UHGV virus genome: UHGV-1315733
Source: a virus
Strand: one strand, 5' to 3'
DNA: 45,999 bases
How positions within the stretch are numbered: the first letter of the stretch is position 1; every line of letters begins with the position of its first letter. The notes beneath the pieces are model-generated. The model saw nothing but the letters and a program-made list of their open reading frames with translations. It had not been told where the DNA came from and did no database searches. Shown one piece after another: positions 1 through 45,999 of this stretch. Made by a program: the position numbers and the translations under genes.

Positions 1-160
1 CTTCTTTCAGCTCTGCTTTCTTCTGCTCGATCTCCGCTGCGTGTTCCTCTGCAAATTTCTGCATTGTTTCCAATGACGTTCCTTCGTTGTCTGAGATTTC
101 CTTTGCGGATAATCCGTAAGCGAAACTCTTAATAATTTCTTTTACTGTCTGCTCTGTCAT
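1..160 (-). CDS. Small lysis-cassette protein, N-terminal 53 codons (MTEQTVKEIIKSFAYGLSAKEIS...). Runs off the left window edge.
   Basis: ATG at 160..158, 3 nt downstream of the holin stop. Open to the window edge. If the contig is circular it ends 5 codons past the junction at a TAA overlapping the endolysin ATG. Confidence 0.4.
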   Translation of the reverse strand, partial: MTEQTVKEIIKSFAYGLSAKEISDNEGTSLETMQKFAEEHAAEIEQKKAELKE

Positions 161-162
161 AA

Positions 163-462
163 TTACTCTTCCTTTCCACTCTGCTTGATTAACTGGTTGA
201 CATAGTTACTTAATCCAGCCACTAAGATTCCTTGTACGATTGCGGTAAACAGTGCCATTGCGATATCCTGTCCTGTTCCGAGAGTACAAGTTGCAATCAC
301 GTAGATACCGCAGATCACAATTCCAGCAATGCCTAAGATGCTAGGAATATACTTGTCTGCGATAGTTTCAGACTGCTTGATTGCCATACCGATAAAGTAC
401 AGTACAATAGCTACAACAATAAGTTCCGGCTTTACATAGTTGATAATCTGCTCCATGTTCAT
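163..462 (-). CDS. Holin (about 100 aa, 2-3 TM helices)
   Basis: ORF 163..549 trimmed to MNMEQ (ATG 462), which follows RBS AAGGAGA at 7 nt. Hydrophobic helices and a charged C-terminus. Sits next to XhlA. Confidence 0.6.
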   Translation of the reverse strand: MNMEQIINYVKPELIVVAIVLYFIGMAIKQSETIADKYIPSILGIAGIVICGIYVIATCTLGTGQDIAMALFTAIVQGILVAGLSNYVNQLIKQSGKEE

Positions 463-467
463 TCTCC

Positions 468-779
468 TTATAATCCAATTTGCGTTGCTACCAATCCGAT
501 CACAAGTCCGAGAGCCGCTGTGAGAACATATTTGACTACTGTTCTCCACATTTCTCCATCTCTGCCCTCTAAGGCTTCCAGTCTCTCTCCTTGTTTCGCC
601 TGTTCGTTTGCCATACTTTCCATGTTATTTGCAAGTTTTTCAACAGATACTGTAAGTGCTGTGTTCTGTTTTACAGATTCCTCTAACAGCTCAATACGTC
701 TATTCTGTCTATGCTGCTCGTCCTCGATACGTTTGGCAAATTCTGTATGTTCTTCTCTTCCTACATATTCCATCACCAT
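468..779 (-). CDS. xhlA: XhlA-like hemolysin/holin-associated protein (coiled coil plus C-terminal TM)
   Basis: 103 aa. N-terminal charged coiled coil and a C-terminal TM (VVKYVLTAALGLVIGLVATQIGL), as in PBSX XhlA. Directly upstream of the holin. Confidence 0.5.
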   Translation of the reverse strand: MVMEYVGREEHTEFAKRIEDEQHRQNRRIELLEESVKQNTALTVSVEKLANNMESMANEQAKQGERLEALEGRDGEMWRTVVKYVLTAALGLVIGLVATQIGL

Positions 780-865
780 TCTCCTTAAATACTTATAGTT
801 CTGACTTAATGTTAATACAGCTAATTATGATATTTATGCAATCTTAATTTAAGTGTACTGGATTT

Positions 866-1153
866 TTGGGAAATGATTGTACCCATATTGAAGTCATAGA
901 TGAAATTAGCAATAAATTACAATATATTGTTATTGATTTAGGCACTATCAGTCTAGGTGAATCGGGATATTATCGCGTCAGTGATAATGAAAAATATCCG
1001 ATCTATACAAAAATAGTAGAAATCTCTTATTATTCATTAATAACACCAATTTCAGCAATAAATATATATCGTGGCGAAAACGGTGGTACTTATGTTTTCG
1101 GGTCTCCTAATACAGAAATACGAGATTTACAAATTCGGTGTTGGTATTGGTAA
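866..1153 (+). pseudogene. 5'-truncated duplicate of the RBP gene (silent cassette F). Outer boundary of the shufflon.
   Basis: 'IEVIDEISNKLQ' parallels 'LIGAVNELNSNKQ' in the expressed RBP. The C-terminus (ENGGTYVFGSPNTEIRD) matches cassette C (ENEPYVFSPKISTLTDSD). Ends in TAA TAA at site A. A degenerate site 'tagcaataaa' lies at 907-916. Confidence 0.45.
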
Positions 1154-1155
1154 TA

Positions 1156-1164
1156 AAATAGCAA
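1156..1164 (+). repeat. Shufflon recombination core, site A (AAATAGCAA, plus orientation)
   Basis: One of five exact copies of the 9-mer between 1.1 and 3.9 kb. Reading frame +1 gives 'aat agc aag' = NSK, which starts cassette A. The only plus-oriented site. Confidence 0.6.
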
Positions 1165-1429
1165 GACACAATCTGGTACAACTGGAGCTGTAGAAATTGC
1201 AGCAAACAGTACGCAAACAGTGGCTGTCGTTTTTAAAAAGCCATTCAATATCATACCGACAGTCGTGTGTACTTTGAAAAGTGGCTCAAACATTGCTACG
1301 TATGGTGATTTGACTGCGTTTGTAGATTACGCTTCTGTAACAAAAAATGGCTTTACAATAAAGCTTTCAAACGCTTGTACCACATCAGGTGCAAAACCAA
1401 GCATTTCTTGGATTGCAACCGTATCCTAA
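1157..1429 (+). other. Silent RBP C-terminal cassette A (90 codons, no start codon of its own)
   Basis: Open frame NSKTQSGTTGAVEIAANSTQTVAVVFKKPFNII...SWIATVS* begins at site A. Homologous to cassette B and the same length. ORF-track 1220..1429 is its GTG-initiated tail. Confidence 0.55.
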
Positions 1430-1554
1430 AATAACAAAAGCGTGATTTTTAACCGTATACACTCCCTATTTCATCACCAACACGACTTTTTTAAAAATGC
1501 ATCATTTTTACATATCTGTAAAACATAAATTTAATAAAAAAGAGCATAGCAAAC

Positions 1555-1580
1555 AAGCCATCGAGAAATGGCTTTTAAAA
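1555..1580. terminator. Hairpin plus T/A tract between cassette A and the recombinase gene (bidirectional)
   Basis: agccat-cgagaa-atggct followed by tttaaaaaa. Confidence 0.4.
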
Positions 1581-1603
1581 AATCAATATTGAATTAAGTC
1601 GTT

Positions 1604-2605
1604 TTATGCTATGTATCTTCTAAAAGATGCTTTTACATTAGATTCACTTACAGTTACATACATCATGGTTGTATCCGGCTTTTGGTGTCCGGCATAAGCC
1701 TGAATCTCTTGTAGCGGTATTCCTCTACTTCCAGCATCCGTGAGTAGGGTTCTTCGGAACTTATGCGGATGCGCATGAATATCTGTCTTTTTACCCAGTT
1801 TCGACAGCATTGACCATATAGCTTCCTTTCCCATTCGATTATGTGGTTTTCGATTTGATACAAATAACGCTGGATTCATATCATCCCTTGACATAAGATA
1901 CTTCTTGAGATGATATGCGCATTCATCCGTCAGATACACTTTTCTCTCTTTCTTTCCTTTTTCTCCGTAAATGATTACTTCCCTGTTTCCCCAGTCGATA
2001 TCACTACGATTCAGAGCTGTTACCTCACCGATACGTGCTGCTGTGGAGTACAAAAATTCCATAATTGCCACATCTCTCTGACTCTTAGCATTGCAACGTA
2101 GATGCTCCCTCTCTGCGGATGTAAACGGCTTTTTAATGCGCTGTGGCACTTTCATGTGCTTGATGCGTCTCATTGGATTCTTGCTGATAAATCCCTCGTC
2201 AGAAAGCCATCCAAAGAATGATGAAAAGTATCTTCTAAGCGTGTCCATGTACGAGATAGACACTTTCCTTGTCTCCTGATACATAGCAAGGTAGTAGCGG
2301 ATATCGTTTGTGGTTATGTCCTCAAATCTCTTGTTGAGATAGTTGACTAGCTTGGTTACACAGTCCACATAGCGGTCAATCGTACCTTGTGAGCAGTTCT
2401 CCAAGCGTTTACTTGCAATGAACAATTTGAGAATCTTATCCCAGTGAGATTGACTTGTTACCAATGAGGTACATTCCTCTTGAAGCTTAACTCCGTGGAA
2501 CGAAATATACAGCACATTCTCCAATTTGTGCATCTGTTCCTCGGTCAGTTCCTCTTGCATCATGTTTACAACATTTTTGATTATCATGTTAATGTCTTTT
2601 TCCAT
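1604..2605 (-). CDS. Tyrosine site-specific recombinase (XerD/Rci-like); candidate shufflon recombinase
   Basis: 333 aa. Arg box (FLYSTAARIGE), HxxR box (HPHKFRRT), catalytic Tyr region (TTMMYVTVS). Sits inside the cassette array, as the recombinase does in hsdS and Rci shufflons. Confidence 0.8.
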   Translation of the reverse strand: MEKDINMIIKNVVNMMQEELTEEQMHKLENVLYISFHGVKLQEECTSLVTSQSHWDKILKLFIASKRLENCSQGTIDRYVDCVTKLVNYLNKRFEDITTNDIRYYLAMYQETRKVSISYMDTLRRYFSSFFGWLSDEGFISKNPMRRIKHMKVPQRIKKPFTSAEREHLRCNAKSQRDVAIMEFLYSTAARIGEVTALNRSDIDWGNREVIIYGEKGKKERKVYLTDECAYHLKKYLMSRDDMNPALFVSNRKPHNRMGKEAIWSMLSKLGKKTDIHAHPHKFRRTLLTDAGSRGIPLQEIQAYAGHQKPDTTMMYVTVSESNVKASFRRYIA

Positions 2606-2700
2606 AAAAACACCCCTTTCTAAGCCAATTATGACTCAAAAAGAGGTGAAATTAAATGCTTTATTTCGGTTCATGAAATAGGGAGTTGATAATTTCCATC

Positions 2701-2973
2701 TTATGTCAAAGTGATTTTATATTGCGTTTTTCCAAAGCAGATTATTCCAATCTTATAACTGTTAGAGGTATTATTTTTCAACGTGATCGTATTGTAATCT
2801 TTTGATATTGAAGCGGTTACAGAAGCATCGACATTGATTGGCGAAAGGTATCCATTATTAAACCAATACATTGTTTTATTTATAGCTATTAATAATGACG
2901 TATGTCTATAGTCGTTCACAGCTAAAGTAACTGTCTGATTACCTGCTACACGTGTGTCGGCTACCTTGCTATT
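2701..2973 (-). other. Silent RBP cassette B (90 codons)
   Basis: Frame open from site B: (R)LNSKVADTRVAGNQTVTLAVNDYRH...KITLT*. ORF-track 2701..2919 is its C-terminal part. Homologous to cassette A. Confidence 0.55.
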
Positions 2974-2974
2974 T
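2966..2974 (-). repeat. Shufflon core, site B (TTGCTATTT on the plus strand)
   Basis: Exact 9-mer. The TAG inside the core is the stop of cassette D in frame 0. Frame +1 starts cassette B with NSK. Confidence 0.6.
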
Positions 2975-3226
2975 AATCTTTAGCGTTATAATTTTGAAAG
3001 TAAAAGCCCCTGTTGGACTGTTGTTTACAAAGCATAAAGACCAATTATTTGTTCCTTCTGTACCACTCACACCTCGTGAGATAGTGTATATCCATCCATT
3101 TCTATCTATTGATTGGATTGAAATAATCATGTATTCATCTGCATTCACACCTAAATCATACGTATCTTTTCCAGATTCGGCAGTGATAACTTTGTTAACA
3201 GATTCGATTATAGGAATATTGCTATT
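2969..3226 (-). other. Silent RBP cassette D (85 codons)
   Basis: NSNIPIIESVNKVITAESGKDTYDLGVNADEYMIISIQSIDRNGWIYTISRGVSGTEGTNNWSLCFVNNSPTGAFTFKIITLKIK*, translated by hand. Starts at site D and stops at the TAG in site B. Confidence 0.5.
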
Positions 3227-3227
3227 T
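3219..3227 (-). repeat. Shufflon core, site D
   Basis: Exact 'taaaatagcaa', identical to site A over 11 nt. Lies 3 nt after the stop of cassette C. Confidence 0.6.
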
Positions 3228-3230
3228 TAC

Positions 3231-3617
3231 TTAACAGATTTTGTCCATATCTGAATCCGTTAATGTTGAAATCTTTGGAGAAAAAACATAAGGTTCGTTT
3301 TCTGAATAGTAAGCAAGTATTTGTATTTGTAAAAGTTGTACTGACCGTTCTACCTTAATATAAATATGCAGTACGTTGTTACTTACTTTAAATCCAACTT
3401 TCATTCCTGCATTTTGCTTATTCATATTGACAGCATCACATCTATCTATATAATTTCTAGATGCATCAACACCATATTTTACAGAATAGATGTCTTCGCC
3501 AAACGCAACTAAAAGACTGGAAATATTCCACGTCGTATAACTAAAAGTTACTATCTCGACCCATGTATTAGAACCTATTCCATGAAGTAAGGCTTTATCT
3601 GATGTTGCATTGCTATT
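3231..3617 (-). other. Silent RBP cassette C (127 codons)
   Basis: NSNATSDKALLHGIGSNTWVEIVTFSYTTWNISS...DSDMDKIC*. Its last 64 aa equal ORF-track 3231..3425. Begins at site C. Confidence 0.55.
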
Positions 3618-3618
3618 T
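3610..3618 (-). repeat. Shufflon core, site C
   Basis: Exact 9-mer that overlaps the TAA stop of the expressed RBP gene (gaa taa ata gca atg). Confidence 0.6.
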
Positions 3619-4054
3619 ATTCAAAATAAAAGAATGAGATATATACATTCATGTTACTTGTCGAGTTGCCACTAAGAAAACTGGTAGTTGCTTTCCAATA
3701 ATTATTTTCACTACTTACAAAAGGTTTGATAATTGCGCTATTACTTCTGTAAGATACAATAATCGCTTTTCTGTCTATCTCCGTAGTTATAATGCCTTGT
3801 TTGTCTGCCAAGTATGTTTTGCTGACACTCTTTAATGCCCCCTGTTTATTGCTATTTAATTCATTAACTGCCCCGATCAAAGTCTTGTTAGTTGTTCCTA
3901 ACTTCGCGATAACTGCCGTAGTCATCTTATCGACAACATAATCCCATATCTTGTCCATCAGTGTACGCTTGTTTGCTTTACCGTCCGTGTCGAGAATCAT
4001 TAACTCATCATTGTCTTTCAGTGCTTCTTTAGTTGTGTACTTTGTCCATTCCAT
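3617..4054 (-). CDS. Receptor-binding-type small tail protein: constant 66-aa N-terminus fused to the currently expressed cassette E (79 aa)
   Basis: 145 aa. Lies downstream of the tail genes. Internal site E (ELNSNKQ) sits at aa 65-71. Size and layout resemble TP901-1-type RBPs (N-terminal anchor plus swappable head domain). Confidence 0.55.
   Translation of the reverse strand: MEWTKYTTKEALKDNDELMILDTDGKANKRTLMDKIWDYVVDKMTTAVIAKLGTTNKTLIGAVNELNSNKQGALKSVSKTYLADKQGIITTEIDRKAIIVSYRSNSAIIKPFVSSENNYWKATTSFLSGNSTSNMNVYISFFYFE
3849..3857 (-). repeat. Shufflon core, site E, inside the expressed RBP gene
   Basis: 'gaattaaatagcaataaac' read in frame +1 gives ELNSNKQ. This is the fusion point between the constant and variable parts. 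Confidence 0.6.
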
Positions 4055-4111: not shown

Positions 4112-4312
4112 TTACGCCTCGTCAACCTTGTTTACTGTGATAAATTTTCTAATCGCATCTACATGAGTTTTGAGTTCAGCATCAACGATATAGAACGATT
4201 TCTTATTGTTGTGCGATACAAGATTTCCACTCTCGTCAATCTCGTCATAAGTAAATGTAGCTCTGTCCATTCCATTTACATTTAAAATTGAAAAACCACT
4301 AAGCTGTTTCAT
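4112..4312 (-). CDS. Small tail-associated protein (66 aa)
   Basis: Its start overlaps the stop of the 1678-aa tail protein. XkdX-like position. No motif recognised. Confidence 0.35.
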   Translation of the reverse strand: MKQLSGFSILNVNGMDRATFTYDEIDESGNLVSHNNKKSFYIVDAELKTHVDAIRKFITVNKVDEA

Positions 4313-7300
4313 TTAAAAGTTCCTCCTGTTCCTTAATCAAGGTTTCTAGTTCTGCGTTTAATATGTTCTCAGGGCTTTCAGGTAATTTTTCTTCCCTGTC
4401 AACATCTTCCTCAAGATTTACATATTCGTAATCTTTCTGTTTTGCTTTCAGTTCCCATGCAAATTTCAGATTCGGAGTTCCGTGCACAATGAAGTAATTC
4501 TCTTCCTTCTTTTCAATCCACAAATCTCCTTTCCCTTCTTTCTGCAAGAATACCTGGTACTCAATGCGTGTTGTTACGGTTTCCGTGAAGATATCTCCGA
4601 TTTCAACGATACATTCACCGTTCTCATCAGTAATTCCTTCACCGATGTCTCCAAACATTGGCGAAGCTGTTTCGTAGCAATATTGAAGTCTGTTTGAATA
4701 ATTCTCTGTTGGAACAACACGGTTTTTAGTTCCAGTTGTTTTTATTTCTCTTGGGCTTATATCTACATAATCATTAATATAATTACTTCCATTAATTCTA
4801 ATTGAAAGGCAACCTGTTGAGTTCTCGCTAATGCTGAATGTGTACGATTTTACTGTTGACATTGCATCAGACCATCCTTGTAAATCCTCAGCCCATCCAA
4901 TAGAGAAGCATTCCGGGGAAATTGAAGAACCGTATCCCCTTCCATTATTAGATGCTTTCATTCTCAAACCATGAAACCAACCGCCCATAAGGTCAACAAC
5001 CATACTGTCTGATGCGAGAAGTCCCATATTAGTATTATCAATATGCATCCCCATGCTTCCGATAGTGAATATTTCTTTCGAATTGTTACGGCCAACGATG
5101 AGCGCAGACGCTTTTTCTTTATCTAAATATATCGTGCTTCCATAAATCGAGCCTTTTTTGATGTTCAGTCCATCTTTATCCCATTTACCAACTTCCGCTC
5201 CTATGGCATCTAGTATCTGTATTGAGCCATTTTCATTGTTTACACCTCCCAATGTAAGTGTACCGCCCTTGCCATAAGAGAAGTTGATATACAACTGATC
5301 GCCTTGCATATATATCCCTTGTTTCTTCCCGTTATCAGTAAGTCTGTTAAACACTTCTTCGGAAGTCAGAGATTTGTTTAGCTTTTCTACAGCTGAATCG
5401 TCAGTATACTTAGTGGCTTTTGTCCAATCAGAAGAAACATAGTTGCCGCTAGCTCTTGCGGTTTTACATCTCATCAAGTCACCAGTGTCTCCTTGCGTCC
5501 AAAGGTCGCCAACATCATAAGGTGGCACAGGAGTTGTAATAAAGTTTCTTCTCTTACCGTCTGCGGTATCTTGCGCCTTTGATGCTGTTTCCATCGCAGA
5601 TACGATGTCTGCATCTTTCACTCTCACCCACTGATAAGATGTATCGACTTTCATATAGCGGTAAGTGAAACCTTTGTTCTTCCAAAAGAAGAGGTCACCA
5701 ACATGCTTCTGTCTTTCGTAAGCTGTAGTCCACTCAGATGCTGGATGGTTTGAATTCGCAGGCTCATAATCGTAATAGTACGTATCAATCTTTCCATCAA
5801 TCTGATTTTGGATATCTTCAATTTTCGGATCATAAATGTTTTCGATGAAGTCCGTTACTGTAGAATCGTCTGTATAATTATCTTTCTTCTGCCAATCACT
5901 TGCTACATACTCACCAGTTTCTCTGTCCTTTAGGCAGACAAGGATATCATTTCCAGTGAAATACAAATCATCCACGCTATACGGTGGCTTTGGCTGTGTT
6001 GAGAAAATCTGCGCTTTACCGTCAATCTCATCGAATACAGAGTCTGGAACTGGCATTTCTTCCCAATTTCCGCTTCTGTAGATGTATTCATCACCAGTTT
6101 TGGAATTCTTCCACAAGTCACCCTCATGAGTTGCTTTCTCGGTTTCCACAGTGATTGTGATATTTTTTCCACTAACATCTAAGATTTCATTCCCGTTTAT
6201 ATCGCAAAGAGGCTGTGTTTCTTTTCCAGTCCAATTAAGTGACGGGTCAGTAGGTTGGAACCAAGTTTCTATCTTCTGATCAATCTGATTCTTGATATTC
6301 TCAAGGTCGGCAGCATAAGTATTCTTAACAAAGTTATTGATTGCGGAATCATCTGTGTACTTGGTAGCCTTAACCCAATCGGATGCGACATAATCTCCGC
6401 TCTGACGCGAGGTCACGCATCGCATAAGATCTCCGTTTGTGCCTTGTACCCACAAGTCATCCTTATCATAAGGTGGATAAGGAGTTACACTGAATACACG
6501 TTTCTTTGTGACAGCAAGGTTCTTTGCAGCTTTCGCATCCGCATCACTTAACTTTGACCACGCTGAACCGTTCCAACGCATTGTTTCTTCGGTTTTTGAG
6601 TTGTACCATAAGTCGCCAGTATGCTTTGCTTTCAGTTCAGCTGTTGTCCATGAAGCTGCCGGATCAGCAGATTGATTGTATGTCTCAATCTTGCCATCAA
6701 TCTGATTCTGCAAGTCCTTATTGACTGTTTCCAGCTCTTTCTGTACCTCATTGGCTCTTGTATCGTCCGTGTACTTTGATGCCTTTTCCCAGTCTGATGC
6801 CGAGAAAGAAGCCGATTCACTTCTTGCAACACAGCAACGCATGATGTCACCATCATCACCCTGTACCCAAAGGTCACCTATGTCGTAAGGTGGCTGTGGA
6901 GTCACTACAAAGACTCTACGTTTATGATCTGCTGTATCCTGTGCTTTCTCCGCAGCTGCAAGTGCTTTTGAAATATCTGTATCCTGTACGATCTGCCACT
7001 TCCAAACCGCTCCGTCCTGTAAGAATCGGTAGGAATATCCAGTGGACTTCCAGAAGAAGAGATCACCTTCGTGGTTTTTTCTCTGCTCGTTGGTTGTCCA
7101 ATTCACAGCCGGTTCGTTCTGTAAGCTAGGTTCGTGGTCATAGAACCATGTTTCAATCTGTCCATCAATCTGACTCTGTAATTCCGCAATCTTTGGATCA
7201 TATACCGCAGAAATGAAGGTATTCAGTCCGCTATCGTCAGTGTACTTGGTTTTCTTCTGCCAGTCGGACTTTACACAACTTCCTTTATCTCTGCTTTCTA

Positions 7301-9335
7301 CACAAGTGAGAAGTTCCTGTGTATCTGCATCAAACCATAAGTCACCAACACGATACGGTGGAACAGGAGTGTTAATGAATATCTGTGCTTTGCCATCAAT
7401 CTCGTCAAAAACTTCATCCGGCACTTGCATCTTCATCCACTGACCGCCACGATAAATATACTCATCGTTCGTAGACAGATCTTTCCACAAGTCTCCTTCA
7501 TGTTCAGCCTTAGACTCTTCATACAGCAAAATGATTTCATTTCCGTTTACGTCAAGGATTGATTCGCCATTGACATCGCACCATGCCATTTCAACAGTTC
7601 CACCCCAGTTTACAGATGGATCTGTGCTCTGATACCATGTTTCAATCTTGTTCCGGACGGAGTTTTTAATCTCGTCCATATCTGTCTTGTAAATGTTAGT
7701 TACAAAATCATCTACAATACCATTGGAAATATCTTCCACAGACTTACCGGTGATGGATATTGACTCTGCATTGATGGTAACTCGTCCTGTCTCCGTATCA
7801 GCATAGAAGGTAATGTTTCCATTCTTGTCTTTTACAGTGAGAGAACCTGAGTTGATATAATCAGCATTAATACCGATAGCATACAAGATTCTTGTAATAA
7901 GGTCTCCTGTTAGGAATAATCCGTAAGGATATGTCTTACCGCCATCACTTGATATACCGATAGCTTCAGATGTGACCTTGATTACATTCTTGGACTCTTC
8001 TACTGTCGGCTTATCATGAATGTATGAGATTACGCTTCCGTCCGGCTGTACAACTTCTGTAGAATACATTCCAGAAGCACTCTCAAGTGTCTTATTCAGA
8101 TTATCGACAGCTGCTTCAAATTCTGTCTTATTCTGCTTGATTTCCTTTTTGGCTTTCTCATACACTTTTGTAGCTTCGCTGTAATAAGTGCTCTTCTGCC
8201 GTTCCGGATCCTTGATTCCGCAAGAAAATGAACTGCTGCCAAGATAATTAAACTCAAGAGATGTGATAAATGTTGGATAAACTTTGTCTTTCCGGTCTAC
8301 CACGCAAGCCAGATCCATGAATTCGATCGTTGGATCAGGGAAGAATTCTCCACTAAAACCTCTCAGCTTAACTCCGATCAATACATCTCCAATCAGATTG
8401 ATTGCATCATCTTCATGTCCTTCAATAAGAGGATTCGTGATTTCAAGTGCATAATCATCTGTACCTCTTATTAAGATTGTACTCTCGTTTTCTACTTTCT
8501 TTGTGGTCGCAATTCCAGTGATTACAACAGGATCTGTGCTAATGTCCGGATCTGACTGATAGTCCATCAAAATGCTATAGCCATCATCTTCCACTAAGTC
8601 ATCCCTATTTGTAATCTTCGATATTGCAGAAAAGTCGTAACTCTTAATAACAAGTGTTCCGTTCTGAATCACAGCATTACCAACGGAAAGCATTGCTATA
8701 TATCCGATTACTTCTCGGCAAGTCACTTTTTCCGGAGCCTGTTCAATCACGAAATCGTCATTGTTAAACTTCGGACTTCCAAGCATGATGTTACATGTAC
8801 TACACGCTTCTCTTAGAAGCTGCCCAGCTGTTGTTGGATAAGATAGCTTAGACGTGAAGTCTGCATCTGCTTTGTACATTGAATCATAACCTACAAGTTC
8901 TATCGTATCTCCAACCGCTGTTGGCTCAAGTACTGTAAATGTACCCTCGTTCAATCTCTCGATTCTTGATTTCGTCAGCATAATCGTGTTGCCATTGACA
9001 TCGAGAATTTCCTCACCTTTCACATCTCTCCATGCATCATAGCTTCTACTTTCGATGTCAGCTTCAGTGAAGAGTGAAATCTGTGCATAGTAAAAATCAT
9101 ACTTGGAAAATCTCTCATCGATGTTATCAATGACAAGCGTAACGGACTTGGAGAGAGCGGATCCCAGTGGGAATCCATCTCCTCCGTCTTCTGCGTATCC
9201 ATTACCGCTTATGAAGAAATCGTTATCCGAATCAAGATATAGTTTCTCACCGTTTTTCAGTGTAATCGATGCGTAAGCATAGAACGGACCGCCTGACTTT
9301 ATGATGTTTTTGAATTCGTTGCTTACATTCTTCAT
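4299..9335 (-). CDS. Large tail protein (1678 aa): Tal-like N-terminus, long array of about 90-270-aa repeats, lectin/fibre-like C-terminus
   Basis: Single uninterrupted ORF directly after the TMP and a Dit-like gene. Repeats of PPYxxGDLWxQGxxGDLMRC...SDWxKATKYTDDS...QIDGKIETW. Confidence 0.65.
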   Translation of the reverse strand: MKNVSNEFKNIIKSGGPFYAYASITLKNGEKLYLDSDNDFFISGNGYAEDGGDGFPLGSALSKSVTLVIDNIDERFSKYDFYYAQISLFTEADIESRSYDAWRDVKGEEILDVNGNTIMLTKSRIERLNEGTFTVLEPTAVGDTIELVGYDSMYKADADFTSKLSYPTTAGQLLREACSTCNIMLGSPKFNNDDFVIEQAPEKVTCREVIGYIAMLSVGNAVIQNGTLVIKSYDFSAISKITNRDDLVEDDGYSILMDYQSDPDISTDPVVITGIATTKKVENESTILIRGTDDYALEITNPLIEGHEDDAINLIGDVLIGVKLRGFSGEFFPDPTIEFMDLACVVDRKDKVYPTFITSLEFNYLGSSSFSCGIKDPERQKSTYYSEATKVYEKAKKEIKQNKTEFEAAVDNLNKTLESASGMYSTEVVQPDGSVISYIHDKPTVEESKNVIKVTSEAIGISSDGGKTYPYGLFLTGDLITRILYAIGINADYINSGSLTVKDKNGNITFYADTETGRVTINAESISITGKSVEDISNGIVDDFVTNIYKTDMDEIKNSVRNKIETWYQSTDPSVNWGGTVEMAWCDVNGESILDVNGNEIILLYEESKAEHEGDLWKDLSTNDEYIYRGGQWMKMQVPDEVFDEIDGKAQIFINTPVPPYRVGDLWFDADTQELLTCVESRDKGSCVKSDWQKKTKYTDDSGLNTFISAVYDPKIAELQSQIDGQIETWFYDHEPSLQNEPAVNWTTNEQRKNHEGDLFFWKSTGYSYRFLQDGAVWKWQIVQDTDISKALAAAEKAQDTADHKRRVFVVTPQPPYDIGDLWVQGDDGDIMRCCVARSESASFSASDWEKASKYTDDTRANEVQKELETVNKDLQNQIDGKIETYNQSADPAASWTTAELKAKHTGDLWYNSKTEETMRWNGSAWSKLSDADAKAAKNLAVTKKRVFSVTPYPPYDKDDLWVQGTNGDLMRCVTSRQSGDYVASDWVKATKYTDDSAINNFVKNTYAADLENIKNQIDQKIETWFQPTDPSLNWTGKETQPLCDINGNEILDVSGKNITITVETEKATHEGDLWKNSKTGDEYIYRSGNWEEMPVPDSVFDEIDGKAQIFSTQPKPPYSVDDLYFTGNDILVCLKDRETGEYVASDWQKKDNYTDDSTVTDFIENIYDPKIEDIQNQIDGKIDTYYYDYEPANSNHPASEWTTAYERQKHVGDLFFWKNKGFTYRYMKVDTSYQWVRVKDADIVSAMETASKAQDTADGKRRNFITTPVPPYDVGDLWTQGDTGDLMRCKTARASGNYVSSDWTKATKYTDDSAVEKLNKSLTSEEVFNRLTDNGKKQGIYMQGDQLYINFSYGKGGTLTLGGVNNENGSIQILDAIGAEVGKWDKDGLNIKKGSIYGSTIYLDKEKASALIVGRNNSKEIFTIGSMGMHIDNTNMGLLASDSMVVDLMGGWFHGLRMKASNNGRGYGSSISPECFSIGWAEDLQGWSDAMSTVKSYTFSISENSTGCLSIRINGSNYINDYVDISPREIKTTGTKNRVVPTENYSNRLQYCYETASPMFGDIGEGITDENGECIVEIGDIFTETVTTRIEYQVFLQKEGKGDLWIEKKEENYFIVHGTPNLKFAWELKAKQKDYEYVNLEEDVDREEKLPESPENILNAELETLIKEQEELLNETA
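5350..7660 (-). repeat. In-frame tandem super-repeats inside the tail-protein gene (two about 270-aa units, each with about 95-aa subunits)
   Basis: Protein segments at roughly aa 565-826 and aa 1023-1293 align along their full length. Coordinates are approximate. Confidence 0.5.
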
Positions 9336-9393
9336 TAATTCTACCTCTAACTATTTAAGGTCAGCGAATATCTCTAACGATATCCGGTGAAAT

Positions 9394-9777: not shown

Positions 9778-9787
9778 ATTCTACCTC

Positions 9788-12880: not shown

Positions 12881-12939
12881 TTCTAATCCTTTCCACCGCT
12901 AATTATCTGCGGTCAGCGAATATCTCTATTGATATCCGG

Positions 12940-14577: not shown

Positions 14578-14592
14578 GTTTGTTATCCTCCG

Positions 14593-15544: not shown

Positions 15545-15545
15545 A

Positions 15546-36318: not shown

Positions 36319-37116
36319 TCACCTTCCAAGTAGCTTGCTCTCCAAATCATCCATGTCATACTGTCTTCGCTCAAAGTTGTTATTGTTCTTCATCTGCTTC
36401 TTGAACTTCTCATCGTACTTTCCCTCAAGGATCTTAGCAAAGTTGTCCGGATTGATGAACCAATCGAAGTTCAGTGAGAACCTTGTATCTGTCTTTCCCT
36501 GAAGGAATTCACTCTGTTTGACCTTATCAACAGCTTGTATCACTTTCTCTTCTCCGAATTGCTCAAGTAAGGCAATCAGTGAAGTGCATCTCTTAGAACC
36601 CTGGTTGATGCGGTAAATCATTTTGATTCCGTAAGGCTCTAGCTGATTCCATGCATCGATGATGGATTGAATGCTATGCTGCTTTATAGATACGTTAGTA
36701 TCTATATATTCTTTCTTTCTTCCTTTCTTCCCTTCTTCTATTGTTGTCACTTGCTTGTCACTTGCTTGTCGGTTGCTTGTCAGTTGCTTGTCACTTTGCG
36801 TGTCACTCGATTGATACGAACAGTAATTATTTACCGTAAATACGCTGAATTTGTTATATTTTTTGCTTGTCACTTCGCCTGTCGATTCTAGGTGTTTTAT
36901 TGCTGTTCTTATCTCTCTAACTGAAAGGTTGGTTTCTTCAGATAATTTGGCTAAAGAAGATACGAATGACCCCCTTTTTATCTCAATTCCTAAGAAAAAT
37001 CCGTCCTTCCAGTTCGCTTTTAAAAGCATGTGTATGAACAATCTGGAAGTGTTTTTGTCTTTGTACCACCCCCACTCGAGAAGTGACCGATTAATCTTTA
37101 TGTAATCGCCTTTCAT
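36319..37116 (-). CDS. Replisome organizer/replication initiator (DnaD-like N-terminus, conserved phage C-terminus)
   Basis: N-terminus GDYIKINRSLLEWGWYKD..SRLFIHMLLKANW. C-terminus IQSIIDAWNQ...FLQGKTD...NFDWFINPDNF. Iterons lie in the linker-coding region. Confidence 0.7.
   Translation of the reverse strand: MKGDYIKINRSLLEWGWYKDKNTSRLFIHMLLKANWKDGFFLGIEIKRGSFVSSLAKLSEETNLSVREIRTAIKHLESTGEVTSKKYNKFSVFTVNNYCSYQSSDTQSDKQLTSNRQASDKQVTTIEEGKKGRKKEYIDTNVSIKQHSIQSIIDAWNQLEPYGIKMIYRINQGSKRCTSLIALLEQFGEEKVIQAVDKVKQSEFLQGKTDTRFSLNFDWFINPDNFAKILEGKYDEKFKKQMKNNNNFERRQYDMDDLESKLLGR
36744..36885. repeat. Iteron array (putative origin) inside the replisome-organizer gene
   Basis: cacttgcttgt / cacttgcttgt / cggttgcttgt / cagttgcttgt / cactttgcgtgt, plus ttgcttgtcacttcgcctgtcg about 40 nt further on. 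Confidence 0.55.
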
Positions 37117-37414
37117 ATAATTTCATCCAATCTTCCATTGTCATTGTGACCAGCCAATCCTTGTGATTCTTCCGATGCATTACCGTAGGCATTTCGCCCT
37201 CTCTCGCATTGTTTATGGACTGTTTCACAGCTTCATAGATGTTAAGCTTCTCTACCCTCTTGCACTCAATATGGATGCCAGGAAGACCGACTACATCCGC
37301 ATCTCCATTGGATCCACAGAACTGCTGCCCTCTCCGGCAATCATATCCGTATCTGTCTTTAAGCAGATTTGCTAACTCTCTTTCTCCCTCTTTCCCTTTT
37401 CGGTTTGAGTTCAT
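37091..37414 (-). CDS. Holliday-junction resolvase-like PD-(D/E)xK nuclease (Hjc/RecU-like)
   Basis: KGKEGERELANLL...GSNGDADVVGLPGIHIECKR matches the Hjc pattern (GxxxE...D...E.K). Confidence 0.45.
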   Translation of the reverse strand: MNSNRKGKEGERELANLLKDRYGYDCRRGQQFCGSNGDADVVGLPGIHIECKRVEKLNIYEAVKQSINNAREGEMPTVMHRKNHKDWLVTMTMEDWMKLYERRLHKD

Positions 37415-37733
37415 CTGTGTCTACCTCCATGTTGCAATTCTTGGCTGTTCGCCTTGCTGTTTTTAGTGCCAAGCCGATACTCTTCAGCCGGCTTTCTTCT
37501 TGTCTGATGTACTTCATCAGCATCATTCTCTCTTCTAAGATGTTCATGTCTGGAACGAAGTACCCTCTTCCATCTTGCATGTTGAGAATTGGTATATCTC
37601 GTCTTGCATAATGGATCATGTCTCTAATTGTTCTATCGTCTATTCCGGTCAGATCAGACAGCTCGGCTCTTGTAATTGCTCTGTCATGTCCGGTTCTGAT
37701 GTAATCTAATATGTCAATATCGTAAGTCTGCAT
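37359..37733 (-). CDS. Winged-helix DNA-binding protein (124 aa)
   Basis: ITRAELSDLTGIDDRTIRDMIHYARR is HTH-like. Basic C-terminus. Confidence 0.4.
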   Translation of the reverse strand: MQTYDIDILDYIRTGHDRAITRAELSDLTGIDDRTIRDMIHYARRDIPILNMQDGRGYFVPDMNILEERMMLMKYIRQEESRLKSIGLALKTARRTAKNCNMEVDTDELKPKRERGRKRVSKSA

Positions 37734-37863
37734 TGTTCTCCTTTCTCTCCCCGGACAAGCCGAGGAGATGAATCATCATGGCTCTGATTAAGGATTGTGA
37801 CATACTGTTTCAGTCAGCCATTAGGAGTTTATATATCAACCTTATCCGCTAGGTTAATACCGG

Positions 37864-38172
37864 TTATAGCCAAGACTTTCCGAATACCTCTCTGAACTCT
37901 TCTCTGCTGCCTATATGCTCTTCGAAATATCGTTGAGCCATCTGCTTAAGCTCCAAGTCCAGTCCATGATTCGGATTGTCATGTACGCTCCCCTTTTGAA
38001 ATTCATGGAGATACGGTGCAAGGGGAATCACAAATCCGTATCTCTCAGATATCTTTCTTCTGCTGCCACAAAAGATATGGTGTATGTGTGGATAAGGATA
38101 TCCAGTGAAGAAGCAGTGGTCCATATCGTCAGTAAACACGCTCTTCAATCGTTTAGCCAATGTCCACGCCAT
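37864..38172 (-). CDS. Hypothetical His/Cys-containing protein (102 aa)
   Basis: ORF with CFFTG..HIHHIF.G. Confidence 0.35.
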   Translation of the reverse strand: MAWTLAKRLKSVFTDDMDHCFFTGYPYPHIHHIFCGSRRKISERYGFVIPLAPYLHEFQKGSVHDNPNHGLDLELKQMAQRYFEEHIGSREEFREVFGKSWL

Positions 38173-38728
38173 ACCTTTCTTTCAGTAATCTCTTTTCATC
38201 CGGTGTGGCAATCTCTGATGCTGTAAGTCCTGCTTCTTTGCAACTTGTAATAAGTCCATCAATGAGCCTTGCCATCTCTGATGTATCGTAGGTACTTGAA
38301 CCTCTTAATAGCTTGTATGTTCTGTACACGATACCGTCCAAGCCTTGCCTTACTTGTGATGTCGGCATCAGATGATATTCTGTTGCTTGCATCACTTTCT
38401 TTTCTGCATCTTCCGTATCCGGTACTGTCATGTATATCGGCTTTCCTTCAATGATCTCCGGCTCTCCGTAATGAATCAGCATCAAGTTATGCATTTCTGC
38501 ATTAGATGTGTTCATTACCTTTGCAAGCTTGGTGAGTAGTACCCAGTAGTAAGCATTTGCATCAAGACTTCTTTTCTTCCTGTATGGCTTTATTTCAAGG
38601 CTTAAAACCTCTTTGCCTTTCAATTCCTCGTAAGTCTCAAGAAAGTCCTCATTTGGCTCAAATAGAATGGTCAGACGATGCGTTACGAAGTCGATGATTG
38701 GTTCTTTGAGCTTTCCGGTGAAGCGCAT
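38153..38728 (-). CDS. NinB/Orf-like recombination mediator
   Basis: 'KKRSLDANAYYWVLL' parallels lambda Orf 'RNRSLDQNRKLWACL'. Adjacent to the SSAP. Confidence 0.45.
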   Translation of the reverse strand: MRFTGKLKEPIIDFVTHRLTILFEPNEDFLETYEELKGKEVLSLEIKPYRKKRSLDANAYYWVLLTKLAKVMNTSNAEMHNLMLIHYGEPEIIEGKPIYMTVPDTEDAEKKVMQATEYHLMPTSQVRQGLDGIVYRTYKLLRGSSTYDTSEMARLIDGLITSCKEAGLTASEIATPDEKRLLKERYGVDIG

Positions 38729-39348
38729 TACTCATCACCATACTTCTGTTTCAATGCATTGAGCATCATGGCTGCTTCTTCCTCTGTTAGTTCTTCCCAG
38801 GTCTTTCCATTGCCAGCAACCCAAGCATCGCCATCGACACCATGACTTGTACATATTTGCTTGATTGTTTTGATTTTTGCAGCGGATGCACGTTTCTTTA
38901 ACGTTTCCGGAATGAATGGTTCGTTGTGGTTCTCTTCTTTCAGCCACAGATCAAATCCTAGTCCGGTATGGATAGCAACACACTTTACAAATGCTCTGCA
39001 CATGCTGTTCCATACTCTCTGCTGTGTCATTGAATTATCCTTTACCGGATTGCTTCCATTCATTACAGGTGTCTGCATGAAGTACGTGTTCTCATCAATA
39101 ACAACCTTAATCAGTGTCTCGTAACATCTGTTTTTATTTCCGTTCTTATCAGAGAACTCTACATCTGTCTTTCTAAGGCTGCTACCGGTTACTGGATCCG
39201 GTACTGGTTCCCAGTAAACCTTGTCTGCTCCATGCATTCTCAAAAGGTTGATACATGTTGCCCAGTTTAGATAATCAAGTCCGTCTCTTTTCTTACAGTA
39301 CTTCTTGATATCTACATTTCTAAGTTCTTCGTAGCTTTCAAGTGGCAT
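38728..39348 (-). CDS. Putative single-strand annealing protein (Erf/Sak-type)
   Basis: 206 aa. Sits with the NinB-like and Hjc-like genes. 'YLNWATCINLL' region. Family not confirmed. Confidence 0.35.
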   Translation of the reverse strand: MPLESYEELRNVDIKKYCKKRDGLDYLNWATCINLLRMHGADKVYWEPVPDPVTGSSLRKTDVEFSDKNGNKNRCYETLIKVVIDENTYFMQTPVMNGSNPVKDNSMTQQRVWNSMCRAFVKCVAIHTGLGFDLWLKEENHNEPFIPETLKKRASAAKIKTIKQICTSHGVDGDAWVAGNGKTWEELTEEEAAMMLNALKQKYGDE

Positions 39349-40302: not shown

Positions 40303-40509
40303 TCACTTCCTTTTTGATTTCTTCTCTGTAATCAGCTCATCAACCGTACATCCAAGTATGTCAGCAACTTTCTTAATGCTTTTTACTGTAGGACTTACGC
40401 TTTTTCCCCATTTACAGATGCTTCCCTTTGACAACTCAGCTTGTTCCTCAAGTTTGTTTATTGAGATTCCACGCTTTTTAGCTCGTTCAAAAATGTTGTC
40501 GTAAATCAC
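40303..40509 (-). CDS. Cro-like XRE-family HTH repressor (68 aa)
   Basis: 'ISINKLEEQAELSKGSICKWG' XRE HTH. Transcribed toward the lytic genes. Confidence 0.65.
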   Translation of the reverse strand: MIYDNIFERAKKRGISINKLEEQAELSKGSICKWGKSVSPTVKSIKKVADILGCTVDELITEKKSKRK

Positions 40510-40737: not shown

Positions 40738-41112
40738 ATGAAAGAACGTATCAAAAGCTTATGTAAAGAGCATGGAATTTCTATGAATAAGCTAGAAGAA
40801 ACACTTGGATTCGGAAAGGGATACATAAGTAAATTAGGAAACACTACACCGAATACTGCTAAAATCAAGTTGATTGCTGATTATTTTAATGTATCTGTTG
40901 ATTACCTTATGACAGGTGAGGAGAATGAATCAGAAAAATACTATCTGAATGAGGAAACTGCTAAAGTTGCTCAAGAAATTTTTGAAAACAAGGAACTTAG
41001 AACACTATTCGATGTTCAGAAAGACATGGATCCAGACGATTTAAGAGCATTACACAACATGGCTCTCGCACTGAAACGAAAGGAACGTGGTGACTTTGAC
41101 ACCGGATGTTAA
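40738..41112 (+). CDS. cI-like XRE-family repressor (124 aa)
   Basis: Start trimmed to MKERIK after RBS AAAGGA. HTH 'ISMNKLEETLGFGKGYISKL'. Transcribed toward the integrase. Confidence 0.65.
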   Translation: MKERIKSLCKEHGISMNKLEETLGFGKGYISKLGNTTPNTAKIKLIADYFNVSVDYLMTGEENESEKYYLNEETAKVAQEIFENKELRTLFDVQKDMDPDDLRALHNMALALKRKERGDFDTGC

Positions 41113-43545: not shown

Positions 43546-44649
43546 ATGGCAACAGCTAAGAAGTTACCTTCCGGATCCTGGAGATGTCAGGTATTCAGCC
43601 ACTATGAAATTGTCTTAGATAAAAACGGAAAACCTGTTATTGATCCGAAAACGAAGAAACAGAAACAGAAAAGAATCTATAAGTCTTTCACTTGTGATGA
43701 TCCATCGGCAAGAGGAAAAAGAAAAGCTGAAGCAATGGCTGCTGAATGGGCAGATAACAAAGAAATCAAGAAAGATGAAGAAGTACAAATGACTTTCGGT
43801 GATGCACTAGAAAAGTACATCCAGGAACGGTCCGCTGTCCTCTCACCGTCCAGCATCAGAAAGTACAAGAGTATGCAACGTAATTGCATGGTACCGCTCA
43901 AAGAGTATCAGCTAAAGGAAATCACACAAAGCGTAATTCAAAAGGTGATTAATAAGGCATCTACAGAGCTGTCACCTAAGTCTGTTCGTGACATGAATGG
44001 ACTGATCAGCGCGGTAATGAAAAGATTTCGTCCGGGAATTGTAATCAATATCACTCTTCCAAAAAAACTCAGGAGCAACATTTACATTCCTACAGAAGTG
44101 GACATTAAGAAGATTGTTCGTGCATCAGAAGGAACTATCATGGAAGTGCCAATTCTCCTCGCAGCGTTTGGAGCTATGCGAAGAGGTGAGATCTGTGCAT
44201 TACAGAAGTCCGACATCAAGAATCACACGATACACGTTACAAAAACAATGGTTATGAATGTTGAGGGCGAATGGATTGTGAAAGCACCTAAGTCTTATGC
44301 TGGTGACAGATATGTGAATTATCCATCATTCGTAATCGAGAAGTTCTTGGAACTTTCAACCGACACTGTAGACATGAATCCGAATACATTAACAACATCA
44401 TTTGGAAATCTCCTTAAGAAATTAGAGATACCTCACTTCCGATTCCACGACTTAAGGCATTACAACGCTTCTGTTCAACATGCGCTAGGAATACCAGATG
44501 CGTATATCATGCAATCTGGTGGATGGGGAAATGATTCGGTGCTGAAAGAAGTCTACCGTCACACTCTTCCGGACATGGAAGATAAAATGAATAAGATTGC
44601 AATCAACTATTTTGAGTCTATGCAACACGAAATGCAACACGAAACATAA
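43546..44649 (+). CDS. int: Tyrosine integrase
   Basis: Start trimmed to MATAKKLPSGSWR after RBS AAAGGAGA. C-terminal catalytic region FRFHDLRHY...VLKEVYRHT. Its 3' end overlaps the arm-type repeat. Confidence 0.85.
   Translation: MATAKKLPSGSWRCQVFSHYEIVLDKNGKPVIDPKTKKQKQKRIYKSFTCDDPSARGKRKAEAMAAEWADNKEIKKDEEVQMTFGDALEKYIQERSAVLSPSSIRKYKSMQRNCMVPLKEYQLKEITQSVIQKVINKASTELSPKSVRDMNGLISAVMKRFRPGIVINITLPKKLRSNIYIPTEVDIKKIVRASEGTIMEVPILLAAFGAMRRGEICALQKSDIKNHTIHVTKTMVMNVEGEWIVKAPKSYAGDRYVNYPSFVIEKFLELSTDTVDMNPNTLTTSFGNLLKKLEIPHFRFHDLRHYNASVQHALGIPDAYIMQSGGWGNDSVLKEVYRHTLPDMEDKMNKIAINYFESMQHEMQHET
44618..44641 (+). repeat. 24-bp direct repeat, copy 1 (ctatgcaacacgaaatgcaacacg, itself two tandem 12-mers); candidate integrase arm-type site
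   Basis: Exact second copy at 44835-44858. Encodes the last residues of Int (MQHEMQHE). Confidence 0.55.
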
Positions 44650-44679
44650 CAATCATTGATTTTACATGGGTTTTAGCAC

Positions 44680-44711
44680 TTTCTATGGGAGTTCGATTCT
44701 CTCATCCCCTG
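44680..44711 (+). other. tRNA 3' fragment (T-arm plus 3' acceptor strand); candidate att core
   Basis: GGGAG-TTCGATT-CTCTC-ATCCCCT-G, with no matching 5' half upstream. Followed by a tRNA-type terminator. Confidence 0.5.
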
Positions 44712-44716
44712 TAAAG

Positions 44717-44751
44717 CCAGTAATCGTTATGGTTACTGGTTTTTTTGTTTT
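44717..44751 (+). terminator. Rho-independent terminator
   Basis: ccagtaa-tcgttatgg-ttactgg then tttttttgttttt. Confidence 0.65.
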
Positions 44752-44834
44752 TCCCAGTAAATACAAGGGTTTCACAGATTCTAGCATATTAGAATAATTC
44801 TTATAAGTTAGAGGAATTATACGATATTGGAAAA

Positions 44835-44858
44835 CTATGCAACACGAAATGCAACACG
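44835..44858 (+). repeat. 24-bp direct repeat, copy 2
   Basis: Identical to 44618-44641. Confidence 0.55.
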
Positions 44859-44887
44859 GAAATAGAAGAAGATGATGCAATATTAAT

Positions 44888-44921
44888 GCCCCAGAGTCAA
44901 ATACTCCGGGGCATCTTTTTT
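44888..44921. terminator. Hairpin terminator (bidirectional) at the 3' end of the endolysin gene
   Basis: gccccagag-tcaaata-ctccggggc then atctttttt. The T-run overlaps the endolysin stop codon on the other strand. Confidence 0.5.
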
Positions 44922-45990
44922 ACTCAATCCAAGCCTGGAACTTGTCAATGAATCTGTATTTATCTCCTGCATATCCGTCCATGCCACTTGCTTTCAGTGT
45001 ATCGACCTGATCTGCATAGAAGTTCTTGTTGTTCTGTACAGAAACTCTGTAGTGAACCATCTTGTACTTATATCCATCCGGTGTGATGTAATACAACTCA
45101 ATAGCAAGAATCTCTGAACCATCTCCGAGGATTCCATTCTTCTTGTCATTCAGATCATAGCTGTTGCCGAATGTAAGATATGGCAACCAGCCGCTCTTTC
45201 TTGTATATACTCTACAACGGATACTTCCTTTGCTTACTTTAATGGCAAGCCACTTGATCGAAACATCATCTCCTTTGCCAGCCCAGTCGATTTTATTCAC
45301 CACTGGTGGCCACCATCTGTCTGTGAAAGCCTGATATGTAATATCGACCTGTCCTAAGTCTTTCTTCTCTACCGGCTTAGATGGTGCTGACGGTGTTACT
45401 GGTGTAGCACTGCCACCGAACTCCATGTAGCAATAGTTGACATCTACTCTTCCACTGACTCCATCTACCTGTCCATCTGAGGAATACTGCCAAATTGCAT
45501 ACTGACCATTGTATGTATCTTCCGGGAGATTCTTATATCTTGCCATCCACTCAACATACTTTCCACGAACGTTGCCAAGATAGTTGTTGAACCAGCTCAA
45601 TGAAGCGTAGATTCCTGGAGTATATCCAGCTGCCTTGAGTCCTTCGCAGACAATCTCACACGCTTTAGGTGCGTATCCCTGTGTGCCTGGTTCCTCAACA
45701 TCAAGGAAAATAGGTAACTGGAAGGTGTGACCTTTAATCAATCTTAAGATATGAGCAAGCTCGCTCTGTGCCTGTCTGTCACAAGTCGCATAGCTATACA
45801 GATAGACTCCCACCGGAATTCCAAGTCTTTCACACTCTGCAAGGTTTCTCACCCACTGTTTATCGTCCTGTGATGCGATATCATCTCCATATCCGCATCT
45901 AAGGATAGCTCCGGCACAACCTGATGCCTTGACTCTTTCCCAGTTAATGACTCCGTTATGATGGCTAACATCAATGATAAGTTTACTCAT
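44920..45990 (-). CDS. GH25 muramidase endolysin with a C-terminal cell-wall-binding region
   Basis: 'MSKLIIDVSHHNGVINWERVKASG' is the GH25 signature N-terminus. The ATG at 45990 is preferred over the GTG at the window edge. Linker TPVTPSAPSKP. Confidence 0.8.
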   Translation of the reverse strand: MSKLIIDVSHHNGVINWERVKASGCAGAILRCGYGDDIASQDDKQWVRNLAECERLGIPVGVYLYSYATCDRQAQSELAHILRLIKGHTFQLPIFLDVEEPGTQGYAPKACEIVCEGLKAAGYTPGIYASLSWFNNYLGNVRGKYVEWMARYKNLPEDTYNGQYAIWQYSSDGQVDGVSGRVDVNYCYMEFGGSATPVTPSAPSKPVEKKDLGQVDITYQAFTDRWWPPVVNKIDWAGKGDDVSIKWLAIKVSKGSIRCRVYTRKSGWLPYLTFGNSYDLNDKKNGILGDGSEILAIELYYITPDGYKYKMVHYRVSVQNNKNFYADQVDTLKASGMDGYAGDKYRFIDKFQAWIE

Positions 45991-45999
45991 ACCAGCCAC

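Follow-up and report, generated by a model that had tools for sequence, protein, structure and literature searches.

UHGV-1315733, a probable complete and non-integrated genome unit of a temperate Mediterraneibacter phage that targets tRNA-Trp(CCA)

The virus genome UHGV-1315733 is a stretch of 45,999 bp, read here as a single strand from 5' to 3' and called the window throughout. PHROG and Pfam scans recover a full temperate siphovirus-type gene set; every annotated gene is phage-type, with no host gene among them, as the initial annotation had it when it read the window as a complete, circularly closed temperate phage genome. Nearly all genes lie on the minus strand, apart from a plus-strand block at ~40.7-44.6 kb where GC and AT skew both flip sign, and the G+C content is 36-44%. 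The state of this genome is decided by its lysis genes, which meet at the two window edges, and by the integrase (Int) gene and phage attachment site (attP) beside them:

1..160, minus strand: 5' part of a 58-aa lysis-cassette gene (codons 1-53 and the first base of codon 54), matching intact genes elsewhere
45983..45999, minus strand: 3' part of the same gene, with its TAA in ATGAGTAA and the endolysin start overlapped
163..456, minus strand: holin, 97 aa, Phage_holin_5_2 (PF16079, E 1.5e-27)
44920..45990, minus strand: GH25 endolysin, 356 aa (PF01183, E 4.6e-25; exact protein in 166 contig blocks)
43546..44649, plus strand: tyrosine integrase Int, 367 aa (phrog_1, PF00589, PF14659)
44620..44643, plus strand: P arm, a tandem pair of the 12-mer ATGCAACACGAA, putative arm-type Int sites inside the 3' end of int, where they encode MQHEMQHE
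44687..44712, plus strand: attP core, 26 bp (27 in most hosts), identical to the 3' end of the host tRNA-Trp(CCA)
44713..44743, plus strand: hairpin and T-run directly 3' of the core, an inverted repeat; the same sequence stands directly after the tRNA in attL
44837..44860, plus strand: P' arm, the second tandem pair of ATGCAACACGAA, with one mismatch in its second unit; on the endolysin side in attL

A minus-strand reading frame opens with the ATG at 160, runs off position 1 and continues in frame from 45999 to a TAA at 45985-45983, which overlaps the endolysin ATG at 45990. Rejoined, this split gene is 177 nt long and encodes 58 aa (MTEQ...AELKEGGWYE*), and five independent contigs (L001, L003, L008, L010, L011) have the same gene uninterrupted and identical in every nucleotide, confirming the in-frame continuation predicted earlier; an unrelated upstream continuation of the frame at position 1 was not found. 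The order holin, 58-aa protein, endolysin is the same in every contig retrieved. We also ran a 6-kb junction probe, made of the last 3 kb and the first 3 kb of the window, in BLAST, and it aligned unbroken over the step from 45999 to 1, at 100% over 4164 nt in L011, at 99.9% over 3913 nt in L010, and also in L001-L009. The junction 49-mer and the first 43 nt of the window are internal in all IMG/VR contigs matched, and host sequence does not continue beyond the window edges: independent contigs show the opposite window edge there. Self-BLAST found no terminal or long internal repeat in the window. Taken together, the unbroken alignments, the intact gene and the lack of a terminal repeat imply that the window edges are neighbours, with no base missing or duplicated between them. 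Beyond the junction, 100% of window bases are covered at >=99% identity by independent contigs, and an overlapping path (L159, L163, L162, L012, L010) leads right round the circle; this whole-genome check is a tiling of several contigs.

The 270 bp between int and the endolysin gene hold the attP core, GGGAGTTCGATTCTCTCATCCCCTGT, at 44687-44712, a single copy in the window with none expected by chance. The initial annotation had singled out the 25-mer GGGAGTTCGATTCTCTCATCCCCTG (44687-44711; also a single copy, 0 expected by chance) and had named a host tRNA with this 3' end as the integration target, which we can now identify as the tRNA-Trp(CCA) gene of Mediterraneibacter. The core and its flanking repeats stand as first described, while the block of identity with the host is 26-27 bp (44687-44712/13), not 25, and Int starts most likely at 43546 (367 aa, 253 contig blocks), not at 43447; the 400-aa frame from the first in-frame ATG at 43447 is on record in one contig only and was rejected. 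The core extends from the first T-stem base through the T-loop, the 3' T-stem strand, the 3' acceptor strand and the discriminator to one or two further bases. On either side of it lies the 24-mer CTATGCAACACGAAATGCAACACG (44618-44641 and 44835-44858; 0 expected). The 12-mer ATGCAACACGAA is found four times, as one tandem pair 43-67 bp upstream of the core and another 125-148 bp downstream of it, and nowhere else in the window (0.35 copies expected).

Public contigs carry this site in all four forms. The attP form, in which the P arm, core and P' arm follow one another, is seen in the window, L010, L011, L014 and L022/L177, so that at least four assemblies besides the window have the attP junction (JGI 3300007098, JGI 3300045988, ENA ERZ28629289 and IMG/VR 3300007108). 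In the nine endolysin-bearing contigs L001-L009, phage sequence ends at a core that is the 3' end of a complete tRNA-Trp(CCA) gene, and beyond this attL lie the bacterial genes for DHDPS, a xanthine-dehydrogenase-type operon, aldehyde dehydrogenase and HrcA. The nine Int-bearing contigs L012, L013 and L015-L021 show attR, with int, then the core, then bacterial genes (Rce1-like, FtsX/ABC and HisKA, or SUKH/Imm70). Each hybrid has one arm: the first pair of ATGCAACACGAA is kept with int at attR, the second with the endolysin at attL, whereas the window has both arms around one core, in agreement with the earlier view of the site as attP-like rather than attL or attR. An empty bacterial site (attB) is found in L105 and L129, both from metagenome-assembled genomes (MAGs) of Mediterraneibacter sp., where the tRNA is followed by the attR-side flank; L105 matches at both flanks. 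Compared side by side, attP, attB, attL and attR have an identical core and agree in full with the Campbell model. In JGI metagenome contigs, two scans with attP-specific patterns gave no match, though the protein look-up reached attP-bearing JGI contigs, and we take this null result as a limit of the collection and not as evidence.

Most public contigs carry the integrated form (9/11 endolysin loci and 9/10 Int loci shown), which raises the question of whether the window is itself a prophage cut from a chromosome, with edges that are arbitrary or lie at att sites. That reading is excluded, and we leave it a vanishingly small probability: the window has no host gene and a single core with both arms adjoining, its edges join each other in other contigs, and int and the endolysin gene, 270 bp apart here, lie at opposite ends of the prophage, about 46 kb apart, in lysogens.

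The flanking 26-27 bp repeat of the prophage does offer a second way to obtain a circle, since De Bruijn assemblers are able to collapse repeats no longer than k, and the loop could have been closed artificially through the core. We consider such an assembly artefact highly improbable. The attP junction recurs in the four other assemblies named above, one of them that of the diverged relative L014 (96-97% identity in the att region), and 24 more distant members of the Int family have the same two-arm layout. Contig names with k119 and k141 would moreover imply k-mers far above 27, which should be unable to bridge a 27-bp repeat.

Two of these contigs deserve description in their own right. L014 (ena:ERZ28629289 scaffold_49, 53,923 bp) is a relative at 93-99% identity in attP form, with a different immunity module (HTH and ImmA/M78 peptidase) and a tail protein of 1531 aa; as the scaffold exceeds one genome unit, its two ends may overlap. 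Positions 1-5977 of L008 (ena:ERZ27301628:k141_29515) are a degraded prophage at the same tRNA-Trp site, in which window 389-40362 (about 40 kb) is deleted and the lysogeny module (window 44459-40363) is fused to window 388-1 and the endolysin gene; its Int is truncated at window 44459, and 139 nt of unrelated sequence stand at the contig start.

We conclude, with a probability of roughly 0.93, that the window spans a single complete genome unit in non-integrated attP form, that it belongs to a temperate siphovirus-type phage whose hosts are Mediterraneibacter faecis and close relatives, and that the underlying assembly, circular or circularly permuted, was opened arbitrarily inside the 58-aa lysis gene. 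Its content approximates the DNA between the two core copies in lysogens, a match limited by the mosaic nature of the variants. Three contigs carry both prophage ends, and from outer core edge to outer core edge, by arithmetic on contig coordinates, they span 46,617 bp (JAIHPO010000003.1), 46,657 bp (NODE_136_length_61427) and 48,941 bp (WAMP18-1 scaffold_3), compared with 45,999 + 26 bp expected for the window variant.

Several observations weigh against this conclusion. The integrated copies exceed the window by 0.6-2.9 kb, and their early region is mosaic; its most variable part, window 26-33 kb, is matched by short Logan contigs only, as in the look-up for the YopX-like protein gene (28201..28692). 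Given the mosaic variants and this poorly matched segment, "complete" must be read as complete for this variant. The tail-tip shufflon described below is arranged differently in almost every contig, and the order in the window is one of many states. No Pfam arm-binding-domain model matches the N-terminus of Int, and no excisionase is recognisable: among the small ORFs beside int and around the immunity region, none has a match to known excisionase families. This last point is weak evidence, as Xis proteins are small and diverse. Finally, the source molecule would be circular on the strength of other assemblies, not by observation on this contig.

The genome unit may be true and the sampled molecule still not a free monomeric circle, being instead a replicative concatemer, terminally redundant headful virion DNA or a tandem double lysogen. 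The phage encodes a small terminase of Pfam family Terminase_2 (TerS) and a large one of Terminase_6N (TerL), among whose closest GenBank relatives one bears the annotation of a PBSX-family terminase; headful packaging, which yields permuted ends, is common with terminases of this kind, and a cos site or fixed terminus is not evident. Nothing in the sequence speaks against these forms, which we rate as possible, at well under even odds, and which leave the conclusion of a complete, non-integrated genome unit unaffected. Monomeric circle, concatemer, permuted virion DNA and tandem lysogen all give the same circular contig and are indistinguishable by sequence alone.

The host assignment comes from several sources. 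An endolysin and a tape measure protein identical to those of the window are recorded at NCBI from a Mediterraneibacter faecis MAG (MFR4613128.1 and MFR4613142.1), and WP_226875248.1, in the 90%-identity cluster of the window Int, is named as M. faecis. Two unrelated attR neighbourhoods (L013/L015 versus L012/L016-L021, from base 11168 onward), one with Rce1-like, FtsX and HisKA genes and the other with a SUKH/Imm70 immunity-gene array resembling that of [Ruminococcus] torques ATCC 27756, mean that at least two host lineages have been lysogenised. The 40-nt 3' half of the tRNA-Trp gene is identical in >120 species-level genomes, nearly all of which have titles that place them in Lachnospiraceae or allied Clostridia genera. 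Proteins of this phage occur in 166-322 contig blocks each in public gut assemblies, and megablast of both window halves against 50,697 phage records found no GenBank phage relative at the DNA level. Previously undescribed and very prevalent, the phage is otherwise an ordinary temperate phage that integrates into a tRNA gene, seen here in its excised form; attP was recovered repeatedly, which argues for continued excision in vivo. Nothing here overturns current understanding. The value is practical rather than conceptual, in that the genome unit, the host, the attP, attB, attL and attR sequences and the integrase are now fixed for a common gut prophage, and tools for site-specific integration in Lachnospiraceae could be made from the Int/attP pair and its relatives.

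Int carries a tyrosine-recombinase catalytic domain (PF00589) with the residues R..HxxR..(H/W)..Y, and these catalytic residues, within AMRRGE, HDLRH, GGW and VYRH, are invariant in an alignment of 32 homologues. The AlphaFold model (pLDDT 85.9) has three domains, with residues 1-80 modelled as a three-stranded beta-sheet and a helix ahead of the core-binding and catalytic domains. Residues 1-85 have no sequence match in Pfam or PDB, and from the sheet-and-helix fold of the model we regard the N-terminus as a putative arm-binding domain; its first 20 residues are the most conserved part of the 32-sequence family alignment. Among solved structures the best match is Tn1549 Int (6emy, E 3.5e-11, TM 0.57-0.65), and the model aligns with full-length lambda Int over 346-379 alignment columns. 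The closest Int homologue, at 51% identity, lies on an unannotated faecal contig.

In the Campbell mechanism we propose, the 367-aa Int would recombine the 26-bp attP core with the identical 3' end of tRNA-Trp(CCA). Integration would then produce an attL with an intact tRNA gene, made of the host 5' part, the core and the phage P' arm with a new terminator hairpin, and an attR consisting of int, P arm, core and host DNA. The hairpin and T-run at 44713-44743 would in this way replace the tRNA gene's own terminator. The two pairs of ATGCAACACGAA would serve as arm-type sites for the N-terminal domain of Int, strand exchange probably takes place within the 7-nt T-loop with the T-stem arms as core-type sites, and an excisionase is assumed to exist.

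Across the Int family, the arm motif is retained while the attachment core changes. We examined 80 IMG/VR loci (L173-L252) with Int at 48-100% identity, allowing one mismatch to ATGCAACACGAA, and found 166 matches on the int strand and 2 on the other, compared with about 1 per strand expected by chance. A first pair stands at the 3' end of int in 69/80 loci, where it encodes MQHE in 37 and, in another frame, CNTK in 26; in the remaining 6 it is non-coding, 64-82 nt past the stop. Where enough downstream DNA was available (46 loci), a second pair follows 203-218 bp after the first in 24. The tRNA 3' fragment between the pairs varies by subfamily and occurs in either orientation, and in integrated relatives a complete tRNA gene (Cys, Pro, Leu or Trp) lies on the opposite strand and abuts int. 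A DNA word kept regardless of reading frame, at fixed spacing and around a changing core, is the pattern predicted for protein-binding arm sites, with Int as the putative binding protein. In one subfamily (L208, L212, L213; Int C-terminus SHEGSHK) a variant tandem 12-mer, GGTTCTCACGAA, takes the place of ATGCAACACGAA.

On balance, and with little more than even confidence, we favor the view that this Int family of Lachnospiraceae phages uses a modular attP scaffold, in which fixed ATGCAACACGAA pairs 203-218 bp apart, the first usually in the 3' coding end of int in either of two frames, have different tRNA 3' fragments (Trp, Cys, Pro, Leu) swapped in between them as cores in either orientation. 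If the arms and N-terminal domain are truly interchangeable, retargeting would need changes in the core and the core-binding domain only, and the family would offer a natural set of integration tools, orthogonal to one another, for gut Firmicutes in which genetic work is difficult.

Several of these properties have counterparts in known systems. Phages lambda and HK022 share arm-type sites and differ in core specificity; like them, the present Int family changes its core target but keeps the arm motif and conserves the N-terminal domain. Also as in lambda and HK022, a three-domain Int with an N-terminal arm-binding domain (here a putative one, from the model) goes with arm-type repeats on both sides of a core identical to attB, and with attL and attR hybrids. 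Unlike in lambda, each arm of the present attP has just two arm sites, in tandem; all four are in direct orientation, those of the P arm lie in the int coding sequence, and the outermost sites are about 240 bp apart. Int here targets a tRNA gene and not intergenic DNA, and in the structural alignment it shares only about 16-18% identity with lambda Int. Sites for Xis, IHF or Fis were not identified at this attP. Williams, in 2002, is said to have classed tRNA-gene integrases by sublocation (T-loop or 3' end). As with other tRNA-targeting phage and island integrases, the identity block here runs from the first T-stem base through the 3' end of the tRNA and a complete tRNA gene is regenerated; what is particular to this phage is its target, the tRNA-Trp(CCA) of Mediterraneibacter. 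Among solved structures, integrases of the Tn1549/Tn916 family, from Firmicutes conjugative transposons, come closest to the core-binding and catalytic domains of Int. They use AT-rich sites with little sequence specificity, in contrast to the fixed 26-bp tRNA sequence of the present core, and identity is only 15-16%.

Near the left edge of the window lies a shufflon, recognised from comparison of contigs:

903..3861, no strand assigned: shufflon of six invertible cassettes with alternative C-termini and a seventh invertible segment
3617..4054, minus strand: 145-aa protein that receives the cassette C-termini, a probable tail-tip protein by gene position only
1604..2605, minus strand: 333-aa tyrosine recombinase, inside the seventh segment (1461-2686)

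The window, L011, L005 and L006, otherwise near-identical, have the same seven segments in four orders and orientations, and other contigs have fewer or more. Segment borders carry the crossover motif TTGCTATTT(A/T); a separate inverted repeat, CTCCCTATTTCAT, flanks the recombinase segment. Across contigs, the tail-tip gene combines a constant 68-aa N-terminus (ending GAVNELNS) with 11 different complete C-termini, plus one truncated. A comparable system is the Rin shufflon of Bifidobacterium prophages, with the rix motif TTCCCTAACCC (Mavrich et al. 2018, PMC6109161). As in Rin, Min of p15B and Rci of R64, a tyrosine recombinase, here phage-encoded, adjoins invertible cassettes with short sites (about 9-11 bp), and the cassettes exchange the C-terminus of a tail receptor-binding protein, a role that position suggests here, while its N-terminus stays constant. 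The present system differs from Rin in the phylum of the host (Firmicutes, Lachnospiraceae), in its motif (TTGCTATTT(A/T) rather than TTCCCTAACCC) and in having the recombinase gene within an invertible segment of its own with a second kind of inverted repeat.

An RNA island precedes the packaging genes in window coordinates, all on the minus strand:

21588..22594, minus strand: RNA island of tRNA-Lys(UUU), a tRNA called Gly(ACC), ROOL RNA and tRNA-Ile(UAU) (ARAGORN, Rfam RF03087)
21798-22385, minus strand: ROOL RNA (RF03087, 369.7 bits against a gathering score of 99.1, model positions 1-574 of 574)
22521-22594, minus strand: tRNA-Lys(UUU) (ARAGORN)
22379-22456, minus strand: tRNA called Gly(ACC) (ARAGORN)
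21588-21659, minus strand: tRNA-Ile(UAU) (ARAGORN)

The "Gly"(ACC) and Ile(UAU) tRNAs have unusual anticodons, and the former overlaps the 5' end of the ROOL RNA by 7 nt. ROOL RNAs have been reported beside tRNAs and in prophages (Weinberg et al. 2017, PMC5737381), and the present copy is like that class in being full-length, beside tRNAs and in a phage context, with nothing unusual about it; what differs is the carrier, which is a defined phage, complete and evidently active, whose host species is known. The biology of both the shufflon and the ROOL RNA is poorly understood, and an M. faecis lysogen that can be induced would make the two tractable to study.

The other modules of the window, from PHROG and Pfam scans, are:

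40738..41112, plus strand: CI-like HTH repressor, first gene of the plus-strand lysogeny operon that ends in int (phrog_8, phrog_4; Pfam HTH_19/HTH_3)
40303..40509, minus strand: Cro-like HTH regulator, first gene of the divergent lytic transcription unit
36319..39348, minus strand: recombination and replication module with Sak-type SSAP (annealing protein), NinB/Orf-like protein, PDDEXK nuclease and DnaD-like initiator
22862..26038, minus strand: packaging module with small terminase, large terminase and portal (phrog_51, phrog_2, phrog_533)
4299..19853, minus strand: siphovirus-type head and tail module with minor head protein, scaffold, 283-aa putative capsid protein, adaptor, tail completion protein, 1030-aa tape measure and 1678-aa tail protein

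The closest TerL by protein, from Streptococcus phages EJ-1 and MismyG, is only about 60% identical. A plasmid-prophage or a satellite was also considered and is out, as there are no partition genes, the structural module is full and the element is integrated in many genomes.

Precomputed Pfam hits in related contigs, to Tad2-like (PF11195) and Tad4 (PF25186), concern homologues of the minus-strand genes 20581-21084 and 30339-30686, which would be candidate anti-defence (anti-Thoeris-type) proteins. The large tail protein (window 4299-9335, minus strand), 1678 aa here, is 1531, 1220 or about 1100 aa long in near-identical phages (homologues in L001, L011, L014, L153 and L157). It contains about five copies of a ~170-aa module (...ETW..DPS..NW...HEGDLW...PPY..GDLW...SDW.K..KYTDDS), and the variation in length suggests that modules may be gained and lost via recombination between the repeats. 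In one lysogen, L155 (ena:ERZ28760580:contig_1241), an IS110-family transposase gene (DEDD_Tnp_IS110/Transposase_20, 13324-14571) interrupts a 127-aa gene between the tape measure and tail protein genes.

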